Below are positions 4,869 to 54,375 of a DNA stretch of 64,000 bases, in pieces. Made by a program: the position numbers and the translations under genes. The number at the start of each line of letters is the position of its first letter. Position 1 is the stretch's first letter. The DNA is from Candidatus Tayloriibacteriota bacterium (GTDB lineage: Bacteria; Patescibacteriota; Minisyncoccia; Phycocordibacterales; UBA6065). Under the pieces are notes generated by a model, which saw only the letters and a list, made by a program, of their open reading frames with translations, was not told where the DNA came from and did not search any database. The DNA lies in assembly GCA_016215405.1 (NCBI GenBank), contig JACRJQ010000005.1, positions 75,560 to 139,559 of the forward strand, given 5' to 3'.

Positions 4869-4997
4869 AGGACTAAGGGGTAAGATTCTCCGCCTACGGC
4901 GGCAGTACAGGTTTCCTATTTTCTCAGACGAATACGTCTTCGAAAATATAGGAGAACCCTTTCGAATCCTGTCCGGACGCTCCGCTGGAGCGTTCTC

Positions 4998-5044
4998 TAC
5001 GCACAAATAGAAAACACCCATTGGGTGTTTTCTATTTGTGCGTA
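4998..5044. terminator. Perfect 22-bp stem with a 3-nt loop between convergent clpB and tRNA-Tyr; it overlaps the tRNA 3' end
   Basis: tacgcacaaatagaaaacaccc att gggtgttttctatttgtgcgta. It is a perfect palindrome and its last 6 nt belong to the tRNA acceptor 3' strand. Confidence 0.5.
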
Positions 5045-5122
5045 GGACAGGATTCGAACCTGTGAAGCCCAATGGGCGACAGATTTACAGTCTGTTGTAT
5101 TTGACCACTCTACCACCTACGC
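5039..5122 (-). tRNA. tRNA-Tyr (anticodon GTA), type II with long variable arm; no encoded CCA
   Basis: The reverse complement folds as acceptor GCGTAGG/CCTACGC, anticodon stem-loop ACAGA-CTGTAAA-TCTGT and T-arm CAGGTTCGAATCCTG. Confidence 0.9.
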
Positions 5123-7742: not shown

Positions 7743-7768
7743 GGGGAGTGATTAGGAGATGAGGGAAT

Positions 7769-7788
7769 CGGTCCTTACAGGACCAGTA
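7769..7788. repeat. 20-nt hairpin-forming motif cggtccttacaggaccagta (copy 1 of 2)
   Basis: Exact 20/20 match to 14340..14359. Internal hairpin ggtcc-ttaca-ggacc. It lies between a minus-strand tRNA and the start of the next minus-strand gene. Confidence 0.7.
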
Positions 7789-7835
7789 CCCATGTTTGGA
7801 TATATTTTCGCCTATGGCTCAAATCTGTCTCAAAC

Positions 7836-7855
7836 AGGCTTCGATTCCCTCATCG
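7836..7855 (+). repeat. Sense-orientation partial copy (19/20 nt) of the tRNA-Trp 3' half, inverted relative to the real tRNA
   Basis: gcttcgattccctcatcgcc versus the tRNA 3' half GGTTCGATTCCCTCATCGCC. Together with 7911..7930 it forms a long palindrome with nested hairpins in between. Confidence 0.75.
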
Positions 7856-7910
7856 CCAAAGCAATGATGTTTCGCTCGGACGGCTACCCAGCCGTCCTTG
7901 CGAATCATTG

Positions 7911-7981
7911 CGGGCGATGAGGGAATCGAACCCCCACCAAGGCGTTTGGAGTGCCTCGTTCTACCATTAAACTAATCGCCC
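7911..7981 (-). tRNA. tRNA-Trp (anticodon CCA); no encoded CCA
   Basis: Reverse complement GGGCGAT..D-arm..AGGCA-CTCCAAA-CGCCT..GGGGGTTCGATTCCCTCATCGCCCG. The anticodon loop CUCCAAA is classic Trp; there is one A-C mismatch in the anticodon stem. Confidence 0.85.
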
Positions 7982-9363: not shown

Positions 9364-10659
9364 ATGAAAATACGCACGTTCGCGTTTCTTTTGGTCGTCA
9401 CGGCGCTTTTGTCGGTCGCATTCGTCGCGAATGCCCAGACCGAAGCCGTCGCTGCCGAAGGATTCTGCCCAAGCCACGATGAATCGTCGGTCTCGGTAAC
9501 GCTCCAGCCTTTTCCTTCGAAGGTCGCGACGGGAGCATTCCTCCCTGTCGTCGCGCGCGTCACGAACCTGGAACCCTACCCGCTCTCGGGAGGATCCCTT
9601 CTCATGAGGCTCGTGAGCCTCGAGCCTGCGGACAGCGACTTCTCAGGCCTTTCGGGCGCCGTGCTCGCCCGATCGGTCGCTCTCGACGATATCTTCGTAG
9701 CTGCCGGCGAATCGAAAGAACTCTCGTTCATCTTCTCTCTCCCTTCGACCTTGCCGAAAGGCAAGTATCTCGTAGAAGCTGTCTATAGCGTGTCTGGCCT
9801 GAGCCCGGATGGCGTAGACGCGCTTCCGAGCGTCAACAAGCCGAATTCAGGTTTCGCGGCAATATCAATCGAGGGTATGGCTTCGGGCGGATTCGCGTTC
9901 GTCGATCCTCGGACTATCTCTGTCGCGGAGAGCGACGAGGGCGAGGTATCGGTCTCCGTAGACGTGGTCAACATGGCGAAAGCCGAAGCGTCGGTGCCTC
10001 TCCTCTGGAAGGCGTATCGAGGAAACGCTACGATCGAGGATTCGGCCGTGACAGGATCAGTAGAGACGATACGAGTCCCTGCCTCCGGCAGGACGAAGGC
10101 TTCCTATAGGCTCGATGACGGTTCATATTCATCGTATTCGATACTCGCCGCCGCAGCCTTCGGCGGGGTGTCATCCTATGCCGCGGCGAGAGCCGAGGAT
10201 GTGCGGGGAGGCGCCTTGGTGCGGCAGCTCGGCATAGCCACCTCGACCGAAGGATGGAAGGCGTTCGGCTGCGTGACGAACGCATTCGTCGACGACGAGG
10301 TCCAGAGGCTCGTGTCCCTCTCTGTCACAGACGGTTCGGGTATGGGGCTCGGCAGGAAAGAGTTCTCCGTGGCGGGAGAGCTTAACGACCTCGAGTTCTC
10401 GCTGCCGTTTACGATCGCAGGCACCGGGGACGTCATCGTCGCCGCGGAGATCATATCTGGCGGAGGGAGCAAGGAGTCTTTTCAAAAGGTGTTCAGATGC
10501 TCCGACCTCGGCACCTGCGCCGCGGTAGGCACAGGCAGGGCATCTGCCGCAGGAGAGCTCCTCTTCGCCGCCACCATGCTCATAGCCGGCCTCGGGGGCA
10601 TCATCGCCGTCTTGCTCAGGCCGAAAAAGCTCAAGCAGGCTCAAATATACACCTCTTAA
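9364..10659 (+). CDS. Secreted or surface hypothetical protein with signal peptide and C-terminal TM anchor
   Basis: The N-terminus MKIRTFAFLLVVTALLSVAFVANAQ is a signal peptide. The C-terminus has a hydrophobic helix followed by the basic tail RPKKLKQAQ. Confidence 0.6.
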   Translation: MKIRTFAFLLVVTALLSVAFVANAQTEAVAAEGFCPSHDESSVSVTLQPFPSKVATGAFLPVVARVTNLEPYPLSGGSLLMRLVSLEPADSDFSGLSGAVLARSVALDDIFVAAGESKELSFIFSLPSTLPKGKYLVEAVYSVSGLSPDGVDALPSVNKPNSGFAAISIEGMASGGFAFVDPRTISVAESDEGEVSVSVDVVNMAKAEASVPLLWKAYRGNATIEDSAVTGSVETIRVPASGRTKASYRLDDGSYSSYSILAAAAFGGVSSYAAARAEDVRGGALVRQLGIATSTEGWKAFGCVTNAFVDDEVQRLVSLSVTDGSGMGLGRKEFSVAGELNDLEFSLPFTIAGTGDVIVAAEIISGGGSKESFQKVFRCSDLGTCAAVGTGRASAAGELLFAATMLIAGLGGIIAVLLRPKKLKQAQIYTS

Positions 10660-10668
10660 TAAACGACC

Positions 10669-13341
10669 ATGAACAAGAAACTAATCATCGGGACATTCGC
10701 CGCGGCGCTCCTTCTGGCCGGAGCGTTCTATCAACACGTATCCGCTCAGTATTACGACGAGTACGAAGATTACAACGTCCCTTATACGCCCGTCGATCCG
10801 TGTCCAGGCAAGATCTGCGGATGGGTCGATGTTTCTAATGTGAGGGCTTTCGGCGTCGTTCACCCTACGCGAAACGGCATAAATTTCTATGGCACTCAGA
10901 CGACGAAGGAGCATCTCTGCCAGCTCGCGGGCTATGACCGCAGCAAGGGGGGCCAGGAGCAGAATAGGAAATGGAGCAAGTGTAACGACGAATACTACGT
11001 CACGTGGACCGGCAGCAACTGGAATATCTATAAATGCGACGCCAGGACGTATACGGTGAGCATATATTGCGAGAAGGACAAGCCGAATAACGCGCCGACG
11101 ATTTCATGGTCTCAAGCCCCGACCGCGGCGGCGTGCGACGCCTCGTACAAGGTAGAGGCGGCAGGCGCCGACGTAGACGGAAATCTTACGGCGGTGAGCG
11201 TCGATAAGAATGATTCCGCGTTCGCCTATGCCGGCGGCGGAAATGGATGGGAGGGCACGTCGGGCAATCCGACATCGGATAGCGGACCTAAGACCGTGAC
11301 CTTTACCGCCTGGTCGCAAGACTCGACAGGCGCACAGTCTGCAAAGATATCGCACACAGTATCGATAGGATCGTGCGTCGCTCCTAACAGGGAACCGACA
11401 GGCAGCCTTTCGGCGAGCTGCGCCGCGCTCTCTGGGAGCGCCTCTGACCCGGACGCTCCGGGCCAGTCGATAGGGGTCCATTTCTATGTTGACGGACCTG
11501 CTGGCAGCGGATCGTTCGCGGGGGCGACGAATACGAATGGAGGCTCGTATAGCATGGCTTTGCCTGAATCGCTCAAGACGGGGACCAACAGGACGGTATA
11601 CGCATACGCCATCGACACCGCCGGCGGCAATAATCCTCAGATCGGCCAGGCGACGGTGAATTGCTCTCCTGCTTCTGCTCCTGCTCCTACGGGATTCATC
11701 GCGGTCAGCCCATCGACCCTTCCTTCATCAGGAGGCAGCGTCACCGTGAGCTGGTCGGTCTCTGGCGCTTCGTCGTGCACGGCTTCTGGCGACTGGTCTG
11801 GCACCAAAGGATCGAGCGGGTCTGAGACGAAGCAGGTGAGCCGGTCGTCGCAATTCGATATAAGCTGCACGGGAGCCGGAGGCACATGGAGCGATAGCGG
11901 CCGAGTGACGGTCGCGGGGAGCCTCAACATCACCGATTTCTTCATCTCCCCGAATTCGGTCAAAGAGGGCGATGGCTTCACCATATACGGCGTCGCGCAA
12001 TGGAACGGGGTCGACTATATAAAGAGGCACAGAGCGTATTTCCAGGGCTCTCAGGGCGGCCAATGGACGTATGCGGCGGGGCCATATGCCGTGACCGTCG
12101 TCGCGAACGGATACTATACGGCCGAGAGGAATCCTTATTCCATGTATATGGGACCGGGATCATATAGCGTCGTGTATGAAGTGGAGGATAATGCCGGCAA
12201 TACGGATTCCGAGACGCGGTCGTTCACGTATCAAGGGGGCCAGCAGTGCGATACCAAGAGCCATACCTGCAGCGCTTCTTATACGGGATACGAATATCCT
12301 CAGTCGCAATCGACTCAGACGCTGACCGTGTATCAGTCGTGCGATATTTCCGAGCAGCAGCACGGCGCGCTCAATATCCCTAACGGGACGGCAACCCTTC
12401 AGAATAGGGCCTACAGCGACCAGTGCCCTCAGTGCTGGTATGACACGCACGCGTATCAGGGCACCACATGGCATTGTTCGAGGACGCTCTCAGGCTATGA
12501 CCATCCTCACTACAGGTCTACGTTCCCTGTGACCTATTACACTTCATGCAGCATAAGCGATGCTGAAAAGGCGGCTCTCGAAGCGCAGGGATATGTGTAT
12601 GGATACCGGCAGCGCACTCAGGAGACCAGTCCGGGCCAGTGGACCGACGTGCACTACATGAGCAACTGCGATTCGAACACCGCGAGATGCACCGATTCTA
12701 ACGCGACAAACTACAACCAGACAGGGTCGTGCCGTTACAACAATCAGACGAGATGCACCGATTCTAACGCTACGAACTACAATCAGATAGGCTCGTGCGA
12801 CTATTCGAACAACAACAATACTGACACGAACACGAACGGCGGGACGGGGAACAATCCTGGAGGAAACGGCAATAATGGCAATAACGGGAATCGTCCGATT
12901 CCGGGCTTTACCATAACGGCAGATAGCTCGAGGACGCCTGTTCAATTCGTCGGGGGGATCGGCGGCGGATCTGAGGCGAGGAGGATAGAGGTTAACCCGG
13001 TGAATGGCTTCAATGAGGATGTCACGGTGACCGTGGCGAGCATCCGCTCGAGGAGCGGGGGCCAGGCTTTGCCGGAAGGGGTCGTAGCGCTCTACTCGCT
13101 CGATAACAAGCCGTTCGCAGGCTCTATGTCTACGACGCAGAGATACAATCCGTCGGTCGGCGGGGGGAAGTATATCGGATCTGAAGGCCTCATCGGGTCG
13201 AGCTTCAAGCTCACGCTCTCGAAAGCCGTCTCGGAGCCGTATGAAGTCGTATTCAATGCGGTTTCGACATCGGGCAAGGCGGCGACGTATGTCCTCCTTA
13301 TCGAGCCGGATGTAAAGAATCCTTCTTTCAAAGAGCTTTAA
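10669..13341 (+). CDS. Large secreted low-complexity protein (Thr/Ser/Gly/Asn-rich) with an internal tandem repeat
   Basis: 890 aa with a signal peptide, many Cys pairs, N/T/G-rich tracts and a 66-nt tandem repeat at 12685..12816. Confidence 0.65.
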   Translation: MNKKLIIGTFAAALLLAGAFYQHVSAQYYDEYEDYNVPYTPVDPCPGKICGWVDVSNVRAFGVVHPTRNGINFYGTQTTKEHLCQLAGYDRSKGGQEQNRKWSKCNDEYYVTWTGSNWNIYKCDARTYTVSIYCEKDKPNNAPTISWSQAPTAAACDASYKVEAAGADVDGNLTAVSVDKNDSAFAYAGGGNGWEGTSGNPTSDSGPKTVTFTAWSQDSTGAQSAKISHTVSIGSCVAPNREPTGSLSASCAALSGSASDPDAPGQSIGVHFYVDGPAGSGSFAGATNTNGGSYSMALPESLKTGTNRTVYAYAIDTAGGNNPQIGQATVNCSPASAPAPTGFIAVSPSTLPSSGGSVTVSWSVSGASSCTASGDWSGTKGSSGSETKQVSRSSQFDISCTGAGGTWSDSGRVTVAGSLNITDFFISPNSVKEGDGFTIYGVAQWNGVDYIKRHRAYFQGSQGGQWTYAAGPYAVTVVANGYYTAERNPYSMYMGPGSYSVVYEVEDNAGNTDSETRSFTYQGGQQCDTKSHTCSASYTGYEYPQSQSTQTLTVYQSCDISEQQHGALNIPNGTATLQNRAYSDQCPQCWYDTHAYQGTTWHCSRTLSGYDHPHYRSTFPVTYYTSCSISDAEKAALEAQGYVYGYRQRTQETSPGQWTDVHYMSNCDSNTARCTDSNATNYNQTGSCRYNNQTRCTDSNATNYNQIGSCDYSNNNNTDTNTNGGTGNNPGGNGNNGNNGNRPIPGFTITADSSRTPVQFVGGIGGGSEARRIEVNPVNGFNEDVTVTVASIRSRSGGQALPEGVVALYSLDNKPFAGSMSTTQRYNPSVGGGKYIGSEGLIGSSFKLTLSKAVSEPYEVVFNAVSTSGKAATYVLLIEPDVKNPSFKEL
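12685..12816 (+). repeat. 66-nt tandem duplication (x2) inside the 890-aa gene, encoding RCTDSNATNYNQ[T/I]GSC
   Basis: agatgcaccgattctaacgc... recurs with period 66 nt. Confidence 0.8.
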
Positions 13342-14293: not shown

Positions 14294-14339
14294 AGTGTAG
14301 ACTCTACCAGAAATAATCGGAAAGGGAATTTGGGAGGCT

Positions 14340-14359
14340 CGGTCCTTACAGGACCAGTA
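14340..14359. repeat. 20-nt hairpin-forming motif cggtccttacaggaccagta (copy 2 of 2)
   Basis: Identical to 7769..7788 and in the same context, between minus-strand tRNA-Leu and the miaA start. Confidence 0.7.
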
Positions 14360-14425
14360 TCCTGATTGGATGTGTAAGAACGCATGTTCAATCAGGCCTC
14401 GAGTCCCACGCACAAAGCTCCGCTT

Positions 14426-14509
14426 TGGTGCCGGAGGTGGGACTCGAACCCACACACCTTTCGATACGCGATTTTGAGTCGCGCGCGTCTGCCATTCCGC
14501 CACTCCGGC
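14426..14509 (-). tRNA. tRNA-Leu (anticodon CAA), type II, CCA encoded
   Basis: Reverse complement GCCGGAG..GTGGCGGAATGGCAGACGC..CGCGA-CTCAAAA-TCGCG..variable arm..GTGGGTTCGAGTCCCACCTCCGGCACCA. Confidence 0.9.
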
Positions 14510-18935: not shown

Positions 18936-19793
18936 TCAGATCCTCCGGAATTCTCCTAGCCTCTCCTCTATGAGGCCTTTTATCTCGAGGAGAGATATGA
19001 GAGAGCTTATCTTCGACGTCTCCATGTCGAGCCTGTCGAGGAGGTCGTCGCGAGAGAGAGGCGACGACAGGACTTCGATCACCTTTATCTCGTCGGCCGA
19101 GAGGTCCGAATAGTCCGTCTCGCTCCTCTCCGCGCCCGGCTTGAACCCGAGGGCTTCGGCGAGGTCGGCCGCGCACGTAAGGGGGGTCGCCCCGAGGCGT
19201 ATGAGCATGTGAGGCCCCGCGCTCTGGGAGGAGAATATGGAGCCAGGGACGGTAAAGACGTTCCTGTTGAATTCGGTCGCGTATTTCGACGTGATAAGGG
19301 TCCCCGACTTTATATCCGCTTCGACCACGAGCGTCGCGTGGGATATCCCCGCCATGATCCGGTTGCGCGCGGGAAAGGTCCAGGGCGCCGCCTTGACGCC
19401 CTCCTCGAACGGGGAAACGAGGCATCCTCCCGCCCTCACGATCTCTTTCGCGAGCTCGCGGTTGGCGGCCGGATATATAGACTCCTCGGACAGGCCCGAT
19501 CCCGGCACCGCGACCGTCTTGAGGCCGTATCTGAGGGCGGTGCGGTGGGCGATGGAATCGATCCCGAAAGCGAGCCCCGATACGATGACGACGGGTAGGC
19601 CTGAAAGCCCAGAAAGGAGCGATTCTACGGCTTCTTTGCCGTAGTCGCTGTGCCGCCTCGATCCCACCACCGTAAGGAGCATGTTCTCGGCCGAGGGGAA
19701 GCTTCCTATCATATAGAGCTTTTTCGGCGGGCTCGGCATCTCTCGCAGAAGCGGCGGGAAATCCTCTGGGGCGAGCGTCCTTATGGAATTCAT
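18936..19793 (-). CDS. dprA: DNA processing protein DprA (Smf)
   Basis: The Rossmann-like DprA core reads GSRRHSDYG, GLAFGIDSIAHRTAL and TLVVEADIKSGTLITSKYATEFNRNVFTVPG. Confidence 0.9.
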   Translation of the reverse strand: MNSIRTLAPEDFPPLLREMPSPPKKLYMIGSFPSAENMLLTVVGSRRHSDYGKEAVESLLSGLSGLPVVIVSGLAFGIDSIAHRTALRYGLKTVAVPGSGLSEESIYPAANRELAKEIVRAGGCLVSPFEEGVKAAPWTFPARNRIMAGISHATLVVEADIKSGTLITSKYATEFNRNVFTVPGSIFSSQSAGPHMLIRLGATPLTCAADLAEALGFKPGAERSETDYSDLSADEIKVIEVLSSPLSRDDLLDRLDMETSKISSLISLLEIKGLIEERLGEFRRI

Positions 19794-23715: not shown

Positions 23716-23883
23716 AGACCTCTTCTTGCAACGCGGAGTTCGCGGGTGTAGATTTAGGGAGACCTCGGGGCGGCGGCAGTAGGACCTCTCGGGCAAGAAG
23801 CCTTTCGGCATCTAGGGCCTGCTTGGAACCGAGCCTGCCGCTCCAAGTTCTTCGTTTTTTTGGGCGGTATTCATGTATGTGGG

Positions 23884-23917
23884 CGCGGGCGGGACCTCCT
23901 TGGTCCTGCCCGCCTTT
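23884..23917 (+). promoter_or_regulatory. GC hairpin plus T-run (paralog 2 of 2), 16 nt upstream of the pilin A1 start codon
   Basis: gcgggcgggacc tccttg gtcctgcccgc c tttt. The stem is identical to 23681..23708 with a different loop. Confidence 0.45.
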
Positions 23918-23932
23918 TGTTATACTGGGCGC

Positions 23933-24826
23933 ATGAAGCCTTTCCGCGGACGCTTCGGCGCGCAAAGCGGGTTCACCCTCATAGAGCTCCTCGTCGTGAT
24001 ATCGATAATATCGCTCCTTTCGTCTGTCGTCCTCTCGCAGCTTAACGCGGCGAGGGAGAAGGGGAGGCTCGGCAGCGCGAAGCAGTTCGCGGCCCAAGTC
24101 GACCGCGTGGCGGGAGATAGGGCTGTCGGTATCTGGGAGCTCGACGAGTGCTCCGGCGCGGCCGCGGCGGATAGGTCTGGAAACGGGAACAACGCTTCGC
24201 TTTCAGGCAGCCCTTCATGGCTTTCAGATACTCCCGACTCGACAGGCTGCTCTCTGAGCCTTAACGGCTCGACCCAAGGCGCTCTCGTGCCTCATGCGCC
24301 ATCCCTAGATCTCACAGGCGACATGACCTTTTCCATATGGTTCTATGCCAACGCGTCGAGCTGGCCCGCGAGCTGGCAGTCCCTCATGTCGAAAGGAAAC
24401 GCGACTCCGCGCAACTATTTTATGAACGTGATGAGCGGGGAGAGCGTCGTCGCGAACGATTGCTCCGACCAGACCGGGGGCTTTCAGTTCGGCTACCACG
24501 ACGGGACGACTTTCCGGCTCGTCGATATAAACGCGAGCTCTGTGCCGACCCAGCGGTGGGTGAACGCTGTCGGGGTGATATCCGCGAATGGGGCTAATCG
24601 CGACGTGAAGCTCTATATAGACGGACAGTTGAGGGCTTCGGCTTTGTGCTCTAACGCCCCTACGTCGAATACGGTGCCTCTCTCGATCGGCTCTATCCAG
24701 AATTCGATCGAGTTCTTCAACGGGAGAATAGATAAGGTCCGCCTATTCGAAAAATCGCTTACAGCGTCCGAAGTAGGCAGGATGTATGCCGCAGAGGCTC
24801 CGAAATATGAATTCGCATATGAATAG
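23933..24826 (+). CDS. Type IV pilin-like protein A1 (prepilin leader/methylation motif plus LamG-type Laminin_G_3-like domain)
   Basis: The class III leader ends ...G|FTLIELLVVISIISLLSSVVLSQLNAAREKGR. The mature part carries the WELDECSG....DRSGNGNNASL signature. Start moved to the internal Met; the track ORF begins at 23873. Confidence 0.8.
   Translation: MKPFRGRFGAQSGFTLIELLVVISIISLLSSVVLSQLNAAREKGRLGSAKQFAAQVDRVAGDRAVGIWELDECSGAAAADRSGNGNNASLSGSPSWLSDTPDSTGCSLSLNGSTQGALVPHAPSLDLTGDMTFSIWFYANASSWPASWQSLMSKGNATPRNYFMNVMSGESVVANDCSDQTGGFQFGYHDGTTFRLVDINASSVPTQRWVNAVGVISANGANRDVKLYIDGQLRASALCSNAPTSNTVPLSIGSIQNSIEFFNGRIDKVRLFEKSLTASEVGRMYAAEAPKYEFAYE
23971..24062 (+). repeat. 92-nt perfect direct repeat shared by pilin A1 and A2; the second copy is at 24834..24925
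   Basis: ttcaccctcatagagctcctcgtcgtgatatcgataatatcgctcctttcgtctgtcgtcctctcgcagcttaacgcggcgagggagaaggg is identical in both genes. Confidence 0.9.
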
Positions 24827-25637
24827 AAGAGCCTTCACCCTCATAGAGCTCCTCGTCGTGATATCGATAATATCGCTCCTTTCGTCTGTCGTCCTCTCGC
24901 AGCTTAACGCGGCGAGGGAGAAGGGAAGATTGGGCGCCGCCCGCCATTTTGCGGCCCAGGTCGAGCATACCGCGGGAGACCTCGTCGTGGGCATGTGGAG
25001 CTTCGACGAGTGCGCGGGGCTTTCCACCGCCGATAGGTCCGGGTTCGGGAACAACGGAGTCCTTCAGAATATGGCGGGCACGTCCGAGTGGTCGTCCGAT
25101 ACGCCGTCAGGTACGGGATGCTCGCTCCTCCTTGACGGCACGAACGACTACGTCTCCGTCCCGGATTCTGCGAGCCTCGATCTCAGCGGCGTGGCGACCT
25201 TGTCTATCTGGGTAAAATCGAGCGGCACGAACGCATATTCCGGATTCATGAATAAGACGAGCGCCCTTACCGGATATCAATTCGGCATCGGCGCTTCGAA
25301 TAGCATCCGCGGGGATCTCTATAACGGCACGACCTATATAAGCCCGATGCACACGACGAACGTCCTCGATGGAAAATGGCATCATATCGCGGTGGCGTAT
25401 GACGGCGTCGCCGCAAAGGTCTATGTCGACGGGATCGCGGGCGGCGCGGTCGCGGGATCAGGCTTCGTCACGGCTAACAACGCCTCTTTCGTCATAGGCA
25501 ACGACGTGTGCTGCGGAGGGAGATTCTTTAACGGCAGGATAGACGAGGCGAGGGTATTCGCCAAGGCTCTGACGGCGAAAGAGGTAGAAAGGATCTACGC
25601 GTCTGAGAAAAAGGGGTCCCAGGTCGCCGGCATCTGA
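24807..25637 (+). CDS. Type IV pilin-like protein A2 (prepilin N-terminus plus LamG-type domain)
   Basis: AFTLIELLVVISIISLLSSVVLSQLNAAREKGR and WSFDECAGLSTADRSGFGNNGVL. It overlaps the A1 stop. Confidence 0.8.
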   Translation: MNSHMNRRAFTLIELLVVISIISLLSSVVLSQLNAAREKGRLGAARHFAAQVEHTAGDLVVGMWSFDECAGLSTADRSGFGNNGVLQNMAGTSEWSSDTPSGTGCSLLLDGTNDYVSVPDSASLDLSGVATLSIWVKSSGTNAYSGFMNKTSALTGYQFGIGASNSIRGDLYNGTTYISPMHTTNVLDGKWHHIAVAYDGVAAKVYVDGIAGGAVAGSGFVTANNASFVIGNDVCCGGRFFNGRIDEARVFAKALTAKEVERIYASEKKGSQVAGI

Positions 25638-27746: not shown

Positions 27747-27903
27747 ATATCTTATTGTACGCTTTTTGAGCAGGTTGGGGTGCGGGTAAGTCTGGACTTG
27801 GACCGCGAATACGCTTATCGCCCTCGACTCGAATCTCGCCGTCGCTCGATTCGGTCTGGGCACCGCCTCGCTCCCGCCGGAAGCCGTCGGGTCCTGCTCC
27901 GGC

Positions 27904-27949
27904 GTTCGATTCCAAACGCGATGCATTTCCATGCATCGCTGTCCGGCAA
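27904..27949 (+). repeat. Sense-orientation partial copy of the tRNA-Gln 3' half, split by a 25-nt hairpin
   Basis: gttcgattccaa (12 nt), then the hairpin gcgatgcat-ttcc-atgcatcgc, then gtccggcaa. It matches the tRNA 3' half GGTTCGATTCCAAGTCCGGCAA. The arm gtccggcaact/agttgccggac pairs with the real tRNA acceptor end. Confidence 0.65.
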
Positions 27950-27970
27950 CTACTCGCCGCAGCTTCTAGT

Positions 27971-28039
27971 TGCCGGACTTGGAATCGAACCAAGATTCTA
28001 GGCTCCAAAGGCCCATGTCCTACCATTAGACGATCCGGC
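27971..28039 (-). tRNA. tRNA-Gln (anticodon TTG); no encoded CCA
   Basis: Reverse complement GCCGGAT..TCTAATGGTAGGA..TGGGC-CTTTGGA-GCCTA..CTTGGTTCGATTCCAAGTCCGGCA. The 7-nt loop geometry puts TTG at positions 34-36. Pro (TGG) would need a shifted loop and is less likely. Confidence 0.75.
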
Positions 28040-28076
28040 AATATGTGGCCTTAAAAGTACACCAAAAGAGCTTTAA

Positions 28077-51921: not shown

Positions 51922-51947
51922 AAAAGCCGCCCTTACGGGCGGCTTTT
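51922..51947 (+). terminator. Rho-independent terminator after the RRM gene
   Basis: aaaagccgccc ttac gggcggctttt. Confidence 0.8.
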
Positions 51948-51978
51948 GCTTCGAATGCCTGCTGCTATAATGAGGAGC

Positions 51979-52803
51979 ATGCGTATAAGGAAGTCTCTCG
52001 ACAAAGACGGATTTACCCTCATAGAGCTCCTGGTCGTCATATCGATAATCGCGCTCCTCTCAAGCGTCGTGCTTTCTAGCCTCAATTCCTCCCGCGCGAA
52101 AGCCCGTCTTGCCGCCGGAAAGCAGTTCGCTTCCCAGGCTGACAGGGTAGCAGGGGAGCTCGCCATAGTACTCTTCGATTTCGACTCTAGTCCGGCCGAT
52201 AAATCGAGCGTGAGCGGGACTTTAACATACAGCGGCAACACCGCCTATTCCGCGGACACTCCTTGGGCTTCCGGCAGCTCGCTTTTCTTCGACGGGTCGG
52301 GCGATTACGCCTTAAGCGCGAGCAACCTGCCCTTATCCGGAGACGCCGAATTCTCTATGTGCGCGTGGATCAAATGGAACGGGGCATGGTCTTCCGACTA
52401 TCCGTCCTTTATGGGAAATAACAGCACAGGCGCGGCGAATCAAGGGCTCTCGTTCACCGTCCGTGACGGGCGGCCTGCGGTCGACTTTTGGGTGAACAGG
52501 TTCAGGGCGACGTCTGCTATAACCGCCGACGAGTGGCACCATGTCTGCGGCACCAAATCGCCCGGCCTCATCGGCTCCGCTACGAAGCTATACGTGGACG
52601 GCGTCCAAGTCGCAGGCGCGGTCGAAGGGTCGAACGTCTCGCCTTCGATCGTTCTCGCTCCCGCTGTGATCGGACGCCTCGACGGCAGCCGCTACTTCAA
52701 CGGATGGGTAGACAGCGCCCATTTCTTCGCAAAGACGCTCGTGGCGTCAGAGGTCCGCGACCTTTATGCCGCAGAGGCCTCCGCGTTCATAGCAGGGATA
52801 TAG
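51979..52803 (+). CDS. Type IV pilin-like protein B1 (prepilin N-terminus plus LamG-like domain)
   Basis: Leader MRIRKSLDKDG|FTLIELLVVISIIALLSSVVLSSL. Start set to the Met giving a short class III leader. Confidence 0.75.
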   Translation: MRIRKSLDKDGFTLIELLVVISIIALLSSVVLSSLNSSRAKARLAAGKQFASQADRVAGELAIVLFDFDSSPADKSSVSGTLTYSGNTAYSADTPWASGSSLFFDGSGDYALSASNLPLSGDAEFSMCAWIKWNGAWSSDYPSFMGNNSTGAANQGLSFTVRDGRPAVDFWVNRFRATSAITADEWHHVCGTKSPGLIGSATKLYVDGVQVAGAVEGSNVSPSIVLAPAVIGRLDGSRYFNGWVDSAHFFAKTLVASEVRDLYAAEASAFIAGI

Positions 52804-52807
52804 ATAT

Positions 52808-53647
52808 ATGGATAACGCACGGAGCATACGGCACAAAGGATTCACGCTCATCGAGCTCCTCGTCGTGATATCGATCATATCGCTCCTCTCGAGCGTCGTA
52901 TTATCGAGCCTTAATGCGGCGAGAGAGAAGGGCAGGAGAGGCGCGATACGGCAGTTCTCGTCCACTCTCGATCACGCGCTCGGCGCGTCATATGCGGGCG
53001 TCTGGGATTTCGACGAGTGCTCGGGCCCTACGACCTCGGACAGGTCGGGTTCTGGCACTAGCGGGACCCTTATAGGAGGCCTCGCCTGGTCGGTAGACAC
53101 CGTCTCTGGAACGGGCTGCTCGCTCCTTTTCGACGGCGTAGACGACTGGCTCAACAACGTGGCTCAGCCGGTGTTTCCGACGACTCCTAACGTATTCACC
53201 GTCGCGTTCGCGATAAAGCCGGACAATCAATACGGGCATGTCATAACGCCTCAGTCTAACGGCGTAGATCAGTGGATAGAATACGATCAGAGCAGCCAAA
53301 GGATCGGCATGAGGGTGGCGCAGAGCGCGGATACGAACGAGAGGCTCAGGCCCTCTTCGACGGGATCCGTTCCGTACGGGAGATGGTCTCATGTCGCGAT
53401 CTCCGTTAACGATAAAGCCATAAAGATATATATAAACGGCAAGCTCGATGCCGAATACACGGAGACTATCGATATCGGAGCCTGGGCGGGCCTGTGGGCG
53501 GTAGGCCAAAGAGGCATCAGTACCAACTGGTTCAAGGGCAATCTCGACCAGCTTCGGATATACGCGACAGTCCTCGGCGCGTCAGAGATAGGTAAGCTCT
53601 ATGCGGCAGCAGTCGGTCGGTCAGAGAGGCTATCCGCCATAGAATGA
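52808..53647 (+). CDS. Type IV pilin-like protein B2 (prepilin N-terminus plus LamG-type domain)
   Basis: KGFTLIELLVVISIISLLSSVVLSSLNAAREKGR and WDFDECSGPTTSDRSGSGTSGTL. Confidence 0.8.
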   Translation: MDNARSIRHKGFTLIELLVVISIISLLSSVVLSSLNAAREKGRRGAIRQFSSTLDHALGASYAGVWDFDECSGPTTSDRSGSGTSGTLIGGLAWSVDTVSGTGCSLLFDGVDDWLNNVAQPVFPTTPNVFTVAFAIKPDNQYGHVITPQSNGVDQWIEYDQSSQRIGMRVAQSADTNERLRPSSTGSVPYGRWSHVAISVNDKAIKIYINGKLDAEYTETIDIGAWAGLWAVGQRGISTNWFKGNLDQLRIYATVLGASEIGKLYAAAVGRSERLSAIE

Positions 53648-54375
53648 GACATATGAGGCACAAAGGATTCACGCTCATCGAGCTTCTCGTCGTGATATCG
53701 ATCATATCGCTCCTCTCGAGCGTCGTGCTATCGAGCCTTAATGCGGCGAGAGAAAACGCGCGTCTGACGGCCGCTCGACAGTTCGCCGGGATGGTCGAAC
53801 GCTCCGTGGGCGATCAAGCCGCCGCGATATTCGGTTTCGGAGAGGGGTCGGGAGCGACAACGAGAGACAAATCGGGCTCGAATATCATGACCTTGAGCTC
53901 CTCGGGATTATGGGGCGCTTCTGGATTGAGCGGTCAGGCGTACGCGCTATCGTTCAACGGCACGAGCGATTACGCGAGCTCTCAAGCGACGACTATGAAC
54001 GGCGCGAGCGAGACCGTGGGTATCTGGATAAGGACGACCGGCACGACGGGCGCGATGGCGGCGGGACAGGACTGGTGGAGGAGGCTTTTTACCGACAGAT
54101 GGAACATCATCGATTCTGCGAATAATTACGCTCAGATCTACTTTCCGGCGCCGATAAACGACGGTAAATGGCATTACACCGCGTACAGTCTCTCGGGAAA
54201 CTCCGTGAGGGTATATCTCGACGGCAAACAGGTCGGGTCGGCGACCTTGCCGGCGGCGATGGCTCCATATACGGGCAACTGGCAGATCGGCGGCCAGATG
54301 TGCGCGGGCACGTGTTCGAATTTCCTCCAGGCCTCTTATGGAGGGCTCCATGTCTATAACGCGAGCCTCTTTTAG
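53644..54375 (+). CDS. Type IV pilin-like protein B3 (prepilin N-terminus plus LamG-like domain)
   Basis: MRHMRHKGFTLIELLVVISIISLLSSVVLSSLNAAREN. The start overlaps the B2 stop (ATGA). Confidence 0.8.
   Translation: MRHMRHKGFTLIELLVVISIISLLSSVVLSSLNAARENARLTAARQFAGMVERSVGDQAAAIFGFGEGSGATTRDKSGSNIMTLSSSGLWGASGLSGQAYALSFNGTSDYASSQATTMNGASETVGIWIRTTGTTGAMAAGQDWWRRLFTDRWNIIDSANNYAQIYFPAPINDGKWHYTAYSLSGNSVRVYLDGKQVGSATLPAAMAPYTGNWQIGGQMCAGTCSNFLQASYGGLHVYNASLF

Follow-up and report, generated by a model that had tools for sequence, protein, structure and literature searches.

Structured, gain- and loss-prone cassettes behind certain tRNA genes of Paceibacteria: the inverted copy downstream of tRNA-Tyr is one of their arms

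Why should a tRNA gene be followed by a reversed copy of its own 3' half? The question is raised by the tRNA-Tyr gene of a Candidatus Tayloriibacteriota bacterium, contained in a chromosomal stretch of 64,000 nucleotides (nt) of contig JACRJQ010000005.1 (assembly GCA_016215405.1), the whole of which is called the window below. The inverted copy behind tRNA-Tyr is one arm of a larger structured cassette, prone to gain and loss, that stands behind certain tRNA genes of a group of ultra-small bacteria. The name X is given here to everything past the terminator-like palindrome behind the tRNA, a non-coding unit of 91-189 nt. Comparison with relatives shows X to be a modular cassette, evolutionarily labile and structurally constrained on its sense strand. 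It may well be an insertion cassette that is exchanged horizontally, with tRNA 3' ends as its anchor, the constrained form being the single strand in tRNA sense. The original prediction, which was made from the window alone and had noticed the inverted copy, did not see three of its features: the second, direct copy of the tRNA 3' end beyond the inverted one, the covarying hairpins between the two copies, and a 21-nt motif shared by the trailers of tRNA-Trp and tRNA-Leu.

The tRNA-Tyr(GTA) gene, which has no encoded CCA, occupies positions 5038..5122 on the minus strand (ARAGORN; Rfam RF00005, 64 bits for 5039-5122). Its 3' end lies in a palindrome at 4997..5045, to which no strand is assigned, with 24-nt arms (4997-5020 and 5022-5045, 100% complementary in a repeat search) around a 1-nt centre. 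The palindrome is perfect, as had been claimed, and longer than the 22 bp first given, taking in 7-8 nt of the tRNA and not 6. These outer 7-8 nt are the acceptor 3' strand of the tRNA and its complement, the latter (4997-5004) forming the acceptor part of the inverted arm. The core of the palindrome is CACCC/GGGTG with an A-tract and a T-tract, and to judge from its sequence the central hairpin looks like a bidirectional terminator; a consensus terminator scan did not call it, because its T-run falls inside the extended stem. Intrinsic termination was one of the roles proposed originally, but a stop at this hairpin would leave the inverted copy outside the tRNA transcript. For control of 3' processing, another of those roles, the analysis gave no support.

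Beyond the palindrome, the remaining parts of X follow on the minus strand. A 7-bp (17-nt) hairpin, hp2, found by folding at 4977..4993, splits the inverted arm at the junction of acceptor and T-stem, the position that it also has in tRNA-Gln and most relatives. The T part of the arm, at 4961..4974, is the complement of the T-loop, the T-stem 3' strand and 2 nt of the acceptor. The repeat search bore out the 14/14 reversed copy described at this place: 4961-4974 and 5045-5058 are a 14-nt inverted repeat with 100% complementarity (TTCGAATCCTGTCC). Joined, the two parts of the arm form a gapless, exact complement of tRNA nt ~54-74. Two "cargo" hairpins come next. P_a (GGUUCUCC...GGAAACC, 4910..4959) is homologous, with compensatory changes, to that of the X behind tRNA-Tyr of L016 (L-numbers are labels of loci from relatives), and P_b (GUACUG-CCGCC-GUA-GGCGG-AGA, 4887..4909) was recognised by folding and comparison as a variant of the UGUAA hairpin of cargo type B, described below. 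The unit ends with copy #2, a direct copy of the tRNA 3' end, here decayed (GAATCTTACCCCTTAGTCC, 4870..4888) and with intact counterparts behind tRNA-Tyr of L001, L016 and L205. The terminator loop region CCCAATGGG (5008-5034) and the variable arm of tRNA-Tyr, CCCATTGGG (~5068-5078), belong to one family of 9-mer palindromes, probably by coincidence.

The reality of the inverted copies was assessed in a sample of relatives consisting of 160 loci anchored on MiaA, taken from GTDB genomes and JGI metagenomes, and three closer syntenic contigs (L281, L282 and L283). When the last 30 nt of each tRNA were compared with its own trailer, an inverted match of 9-22 nt was found in 31 of 96 tRNAs from the window and from related and control loci, with 64 of the 96 reaching at most 7 nt; the 31 cases fall to 24 once duplicate contigs are dropped. 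On upstream flanks the same test gave no match longer than 9 nt. An apparent match at tRNA-Arg of L045 was rejected, being a neighbouring tRNA. The copy first noticed in the window is thus found at tRNA loci of relatives as well.

A T-loop sequence as near-universal as TTCGAATCC will turn up by chance, and two T-loop-like 11-mers do fall by chance inside coding regions of the window, so that generic matches to the T-loop consensus had to be considered as the source of the inverted copies. This explanation is refuted, and practically no weight is left to it: the matches extend into tRNA-specific stems and the acceptor, they track the tRNA across genomes, and they stand out from the background of at most 7 nt in the 64 other trailers. 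In 22 of 24 trailers, moreover, the best match of the inverted arm is the adjacent tRNA and not a tRNA with the same anticodon from another genome, and the inverted copies are therefore not generic T-loop matches. It had been anticipated that copies lacking at other tRNA genes would go together with such a generic origin; other tRNAs do lack them, and the generic origin is nonetheless ruled out. The pattern is genuine and tRNA-specific. Direct tandem duplication of the tRNA was likewise considered as the source of the arm and is disfavoured, since at G.U positions it is the 3' strand that the arm complements (A opposite U64 in the tRNA-Trp of the window) and the arm holds the complement of the discriminator and of position +1.

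About 27 non-redundant X were recognised in related metagenome-assembled genomes (MAGs) of Paceibacteria, made up of the 24 cases above, those at L282 Trp and L005 Trp, and one at L016 Pro-CGG that was found by covariance model. They have a common architecture. On the tRNA-sense strand the tRNA is followed, usually, by a terminator-like palindrome, then by the inverted copy of nt ~54-74, often broken at the junction of acceptor and T-stem by the stable hp2, by "GAA", by one or two cargo hairpins and finally by copy #2, consisting of the last 10-19 nt of the tRNA. The limits of the arm are constant, as it begins at the complement of discriminator +1 and stops at nt 53/54, and hp2, if present, lies within 1 nt of the 65/66 boundary. 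Copy #2 measures 15-19 nt behind tRNA-Tyr of L001, tRNA-Leu of L004, tRNA-Leu, -Trp, -Tyr and -Pro of L016, and tRNA-Trp of L204 and L206. The cargo varies by type: type A reads ...CGAG-NN-GGGGUCG...GUGAC, type B consists of P_a, RUAYUG and a 4-5-bp stem with a UGUAA loop, and further types were labelled C, D and E.

X occurs behind Leu-CAA, Trp, Tyr, Gln-UUG and Pro-CGG tRNAs, and none was found at the Val, Ala, Cys, Leu-UAA and Lys tRNAs of the genomes that bear it. An idea that X marks tRNAs one mutation away from stop codons (Tyr, Trp, Leu-CAA, Gln) was dropped, as there is an X at Pro-CGG and none at Cys, Leu-UAA or Lys. Covariance models of types A and B found copies in this clade only, the type-A model (R1) giving 18 matches in loci of the clade and none in 1.03 Mb of other loci. 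By BLAST, 81 of 86 matches lie within 450 nt of a tRNA. The orientation of X is always that of its tRNA.

All four tRNAs of the window, intact according to ARAGORN and Rfam and all on the minus strand, are followed by an X. Behind tRNA-Trp(CCA), at 7910..7981, X spans 7755..7910 of the minus strand, with a hairpin at 7862-7910, the inverted arm at 7840-7857, P_a at 7789-7839, P_b at 7768-7788 and copy #2 at 7755-7770; the arm is 18 nt long and contiguous, copy #2 is exact over 13 nt, and the unit scores 78 bits with covariance model R2. At tRNA-Leu(CAA), 14426..14509, the X (14332..14423, minus) has its inverted arm at 14418-14423 and 14398-14409, an 11-nt copy with a degenerate acceptor part, followed by P_a (14361-14397), P_b (14339-14359) and a decayed copy #2 (14332-14341). 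There is no terminator hairpin at this locus, miaA comes next, and the score with model R2 is 61 bits. The Trp and Leu trailers have a P_b motif of 21 nt in common, without a single difference, and the rest of the window does not contain it. Behind tRNA-Gln(TTG), 27969..28040, X extends over 27792..27950 (minus): the acceptor part of the arm (27941-27950) and its T part (27904-27915) are copies of 10 and 12 nt with hp2 between them (27917-27940), and they are followed by a GC-rich cargo of type E (27803-27903), shared with tRNA-Trp of L282, and by a 9-nt copy #2 (27792-27802). No additional X was detected in the window beyond these four loci. The recurrence that had been called systematic therefore holds within the window, at four of four tRNA genes, but not in the lineage, where other tRNAs and syntenic relatives are without X.

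Perfect palindromes run seamlessly from the terminator arms into the tRNA, and relatives without X still have perfect bidirectional terminators that abut the tRNA, as behind tRNA-Trp of L281. It could thus be supposed that the inverted arm is a neutral by-product, formed when intrastrand template switching lengthened a palindromic terminator until it reached into the tRNA (quasipalindrome extension), and that the rest of X is unrelated intergenic repeat DNA. We consider such an origin improbable. It leaves unexplained the constant stop of the arm at nt 53/54, the place of hp2 at the acceptor/T junction, the steady tie to cargo families and copy #2 and the restriction to one clade, and arms also exist without a terminator hairpin, behind tRNA-Leu of the window and tRNA-Pro of L016.

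The structures of X, and of tRNAs with their trailers, are predicted ones. At all four window loci the minimum free energy fold pairs the tRNA 3' half with the trailer (z-scores -3.7 to -11.7), and this paired state beats a cloverleaf with a separately folded trailer by 6-25 kcal/mol, in agreement with the pairing proposed originally. Folded by itself, X is predicted to form an acceptor-like and a T-stem-like helix from the inverted arm and copy #2, lengthened by 3-5 bp of T-loop sequence; hp2 branches off at the junction, where the body of a tRNA would be, and P_a and P_b close a tight multiloop. An acceptor-like helix made of the 5' and 3' ends is predicted in most X (for example L001 Tyr, L016 Trp and L004 Leu). 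Compensatory changes were found by RNAalifold in 10 of the 12 pairs of type B and in 10 of the 18 pairs of type A, where one G.U pair is invariant (8/8). Of 23 X, 20 fold better as the tRNA-sense strand than as the antisense strand, and several motifs keep to the sense strand: sense to antisense counts in the X of the window and the other loci (3.5 kb in total) are 11:0 for GAGCGA, 15:0 for AGCGA[AG] and 9:0 for GTGAC. Because of the covariation, the invariant G.U pair and the strand-specific motifs, the constrained form of X is taken to be a single strand with the polarity of the tRNA, which could be RNA or single-stranded DNA (ssDNA). The GAGCGA motif often sits in loops resembling GAGCGAAGCGA and in spacers that replace the terminator; GCGAAGC is a very stable DNA mini-hairpin.

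Constraint on a single strand also suits a function for the host, and this is the main rival of the insertion cassette. X might be a tRNA-directed RNA that combines a constant scaffold (hp2, P_a and P_b) with arms that are "programmable", being complementary to one tRNA's 3' half. It would act either in cis, with read-through pre-tRNA as its target, or in trans, with unfolded tRNA or 3' fragments. It may also be an acceptor/T-arm mimic for tRNA-binding enzymes or toxins, with copy #2 masking the antisense arm or completing the mimic. X would then constitute a new class of tRNA-specific RNA in bacteria of the candidate phyla radiation (CPR), a tentative proposal, with exchangeable arms antisense to nt 54-74 of one tRNA and masked by the 3' segment. 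Such an RNA could conceivably be a guide or decoy for a tRNA-processing, repair, recombination or defence activity, with the adjacent tRNA gene as the template from which its arms are renewed. Covariation, the invariant G.U pair and motifs confined to the sense strand agree with a tRNA-directed RNA, and so do the limits of the arm, which are structural limits of the tRNA (nt 54 to discriminator +1, with hp2 at the acceptor/T junction), the combination of identical scaffolds with differing arms, as in guide-RNA families, the constant tRNA orientation, the strongly favoured predicted duplex and the conserved loops. We nevertheless regard this function as possible but doubtful. X is patchy and frequently lost, even among close syntenic relatives, and copy #2 is often decayed (window Tyr and Leu), which breaks the helix of the mimic. 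A strong terminator usually separates X from the tRNA, and a scan for promoters of a separate X transcript found nothing convincing. Remnant arrays and orphan cargo occur as well, no partner protein was identified, and Rfam has no family for X: at the gathering threshold the only matches of the window are its four tRNAs, and at E<=10 the Tyr and Trp trailers give tRNAs and noise only.

The lability of X is apparent among the closest relatives. L281, L282 and L283 share the gene order of the window, with MiaA proteins 66-68% identical, yet they have no X at tRNA-Leu and tRNA-Tyr, and two of the three have none at tRNA-Trp. Plain palindromic terminators, or nothing, stand behind these genes, except for the X at tRNA-Trp of L282, whose cargo resembles that of tRNA-Gln in the window. 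At L282:9918-10003 the start codon of miaA lies 2 nt past the end of tRNA-Leu(CAA), with neither terminator nor X between them. Even an identical tRNA-Trp is followed by a type B unit with a type D remnant in L004, by type D in L204 and by no X in L008.

Units are also stacked. In arrays, the unit next to the tRNA is complete, and 3' remnants of a different cargo family lie beyond it (tRNA-Trp of L004 and L005, tRNA-Leu of L205, tRNA-Tyr of L002 and L205, tRNA-Pro of L016), and a second, different terminator comes after copy #2 at tRNA-Leu and tRNA-Tyr of L016 and tRNA-Trp of L204, which is what the displaced original end of a tRNA gene would look like. In L016:7340-7745 (minus) a tRNA-Pro(CGG), its 3' end masked by a run of N, is followed by a complete X of type A, whose copy #2 is perfect over 19 nt, and a second, truncated X directly abuts the 5' end of tRNA-Val. 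In L005:11890-12130 (minus) a type A unit and a type B remnant, with arms matching tRNA-Trp, persist behind a 39-nt stump of a degenerate tRNA-Trp (GGGTAAGG...GATGCCCGC), and ARAGORN reports no tRNA at this stump, where tRNA-Trp is expected; the tRNA may have been destroyed by the cassette, or the cassette may have survived its loss. Two orphan copies of cargo, mixing modules of types A and B and without tRNA-derived arms, lie in L002 at 10962-11140 and 13270-13330 (minus), one right after miaA and the other right after clpB, both opposite in orientation to the nearby tRNAs.

Two comparisons speak for exchange between genomes and between tRNAs. Copy #2 behind tRNA-Leu in L001 and L002 agrees at 14/14 and 13/14 positions with the tRNA-Leu allele of the L005/L006 type, and at only 8-10/14 with the adjacent tRNA, and the distribution of tRNA-Leu alleles is at odds with miaA similarity; together these sequence comparisons suggest that the cassette came in with its own tRNA. 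The X at tRNA-Leu of L005 and that at tRNA-Trp of L205 share 20 of 21 nt of hp2 and 55 of 55 nt of P_a and the junction, with miaA 75% identical, while their tRNA-specific arms and P_b stems are unrelated.

Among the three roles proposed originally, a recombination scar comes closest to these patterns, which include arrays, remnants and a directly repeated tRNA 3' end. X is not a passive scar, however, because its internal hairpins covary and carry strand-specific motifs. A particular version would have the attL/attR arms of phages or islands with tyrosine integrases, inserted in the region from T-loop to 3' end and later stripped of most of their length. Integrating elements widely cause partial duplication of tRNAs and leave tRNA fragments behind (PMC9897764), and the direct repeats starting in the T-loop and the serial arrays at one tRNA would be familiar products of it. 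Such att scars are unlikely for several reasons. The internal hairpins covary in structure, which is unexpected for sites bound by proteins on double-stranded DNA, and known att sites have no counterpart of the inverted copy of an entire 3' half. All units, at 100-190 nt and non-coding, are too small to encode an integrase, and no Phage_integrase, resolvase or transposase was found in a Pfam scan of ~50 open reading frames (ORFs), all of the window. That scan returned housekeeping functions (ClpB, Alr, MgsA, MiaA, ParB, TopA, the region of seryl-tRNA synthetase, TruB and BipA) together with DprA and several type IV pilin-like proteins. Pattern scans of IMG/VR gave no X in the matches examined: one pattern had no match, type-B1 matches were coding, and type-A matches were not inspected; the hairpin-motif matches were filtered for stems and the one example inspected was coding, and type-E matches were in the range expected by chance for a 15-mer. 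Compared with the cassette and the tRNA-directed RNA, the att scars, chance and neutral palindrome extension all have a lower probability.

We thus return to the insertion cassette as the preferred reading, according to which X is gained, lost, stacked and exchanged at the 3' ends of particular tRNA genes in a clade of Paceibacteria; in our judgement the case for such traffic is evenly balanced. Incoming DNA would carry a tRNA, or at least its 3' half, with terminator, inverted arm and cargo, and would recombine with the resident locus, the right junction falling between the T-loop and the 3' end of the resident tRNA. The displaced resident end would survive as copy #2, sometimes with its own old terminator, and repeated events would push older units downstream to decay; arrays and remnants are observed, and the order of events is reconstructed from them. 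The arm would stay complementary to the adjacent tRNA either by travelling with it or by being re-templated through intrastrand template switching at the palindrome. In the tRNA-sense single strand, as read-through RNA or as ssDNA, the inverted arm would pair with copy #2 into the acceptor/T-stem-like helix from which hp2 branches. Since no recombinase is in sight and competence genes are present, the route proposed, as a working guess, is natural transformation followed by homology-facilitated recombination with the tRNA as anchor.

Several points weigh against this reading. Neither a mobilising enzyme nor an excised form was found, nor a true pair of empty and filled sites with identical flanks, so that insertion is deduced solely from the comparison of loci. 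Ordinary recombination would hardly join one and the same scaffold to wholly unlike tRNA-specific arms, and the re-templating of arms is conjectured. That hp2 always has the same place and that loops (UGUAA, GAGCGA) are conserved suggests design for a function more than it suggests selfish DNA. Co-transcription of X with the tRNA is made less likely by the terminator that precedes the inverted arm, and the promoter scan was negative. Finally, all data come from MAGs and metagenome contigs, and the sample is centred on miaA and thus biased to tRNAs near this gene.

How does X compare with systems already described? tRNA genes are classic landing sites of mobile DNA, and the known elements there are of kilobase size and driven by integrases. 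X contrasts with them in being ~150 nt long, without proteins and structurally constrained, with arms copied from its own tRNA and scaffolds that recur across tRNAs and genomes. Integrative elements and islands of tRNA genes, with attL/attR sites of tyrosine recombinases, resemble X by inserting at the tRNA 3' end, by supplying a replacement 3' segment that keeps the gene intact, by leaving the displaced 3' end as a direct repeat from the T-loop and by forming arrays through serial integration. Unlike them, X is small and non-coding, has no integrase nearby in the window and no protein-coding cargo of kilobase scale, and it possesses an inverted copy of the whole 3' half, covarying hairpins and the same scaffolds at different tRNAs. 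Miniature inverted-repeat transposable elements, REPINs and Correia-type elements are, as X is, small, non-coding, hairpin-forming and patchy, with compensatory stem evolution and occasional orphan copies. The arms of X, in contrast, derive from the adjacent tRNA and differ between loci with the same scaffold, there are no terminal inverted repeats constant to the element, and X is not dispersed over non-specific intergenic sites (81 of 86 matches near a tRNA, two orphans in L002) but always has the orientation of the tRNA. We know of no REP-associated tyrosine transposase (RAYT) or other transposase for X elements.

By analogy, X may also be set beside folded single-strand recombination sites such as attP(+) of the CTX phage and attC of integrons: the hairpin of arm and copy #2 would reproduce the duplex of the chromosomal target, structure is kept more than sequence, and features are strand-specific. 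No enzyme of the Xer or IntI type is implicated for X, however, and its target is a tRNA 3' end, so that the likeness is one of logic only. With tRNA-like structures (the tmRNA domain, the Y RNA YrlA, viral tRNA-like structures and mascRNA) X shares 5' and 3' ends that form an acceptor/T-stem-like helix ending at the discriminator, and a branching arm. It differs from them in that cargo replaces the T-loop consensus, no CCA is encoded, the helix runs past the discriminator, there is no Rfam match, and the helix copies the neighbouring tRNA and has no fixed identity. Primer-binding sites of retroviruses and long terminal repeat elements, and targets of 3' tRNA fragments, also consist of an 18-22-nt complement to the 3' end of one tRNA, but the complement in X omits CCA, spans the whole T-loop and is split by a hairpin, and no reverse transcriptase occurs in its context.

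Other known classes were tried and rejected. A T-box riboswitch does not fit, with no Rfam match, pairing to the T-arm and acceptor 3' strand and not to anticodon and NCCA, and downstream genes that vary or are convergent. Group I introns are known from anticodon loops of Patescibacteria tRNAs, at position 35/36 (PMC13011429); here the tRNAs are intact, there is no Intron_gpI match and the cargo measures only 60-110 nt. Guides of the H/ACA or C/D kind, an RNase P substrate and a hammerhead-type ribozyme were dropped as no model matched and the cargo is too small, and they are disfavoured too by the helix, which passes the discriminator and leaves no unpaired target nucleotides. No description of such elements was found in the literature searched, and X is apparently undescribed; the nearest published cases are the group I introns in tRNAs of Patescibacteria (PMC13011429) and the tRNA fragments of integrating elements (PMC9897764).

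If X is mobile DNA, it would represent an unrecognised mode of spreading in the naturally competent, genome-reduced CPR bacteria, by tRNA-anchored homology or by recombination of a folded strand, with arms re-templated on the way. As a functional RNA it would introduce a new kind of guide or mimic directed at tRNAs. In practice X yields tRNA 3' fragments and long perfect palindromes, which can confound tRNA annotation and metagenome assembly, and it is easily tracked as a recombination marker in Paceibacteria.

Further features of the window concern its gene content. The dprA gene lies at 18936-19793 (minus), and five paralogous pilin-like genes, whose products have an N-terminal methylation motif and Laminin_G_3, form two clusters at 23873-25637 and 51946-54375; together they make up a competence and type IV pilus repertoire typical of CPR. 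Between MgsA and miaA, at 9364-13341, there are two large ORFs of 431 and 890 amino acids with no Pfam match. As miaA and MgsA are direct neighbours in L281, a syntenic relative, the two ORFs look like a lineage-specific insertion. GC skew is weakly positive (0.01-0.08) on the plus strand in every 8-kb bin of the window, a signal that does not settle which of the strands becomes single-stranded when the DNA is replicated. Should the skew mark the leading strand, the four minus-strand tRNA genes would be head-on to replication.

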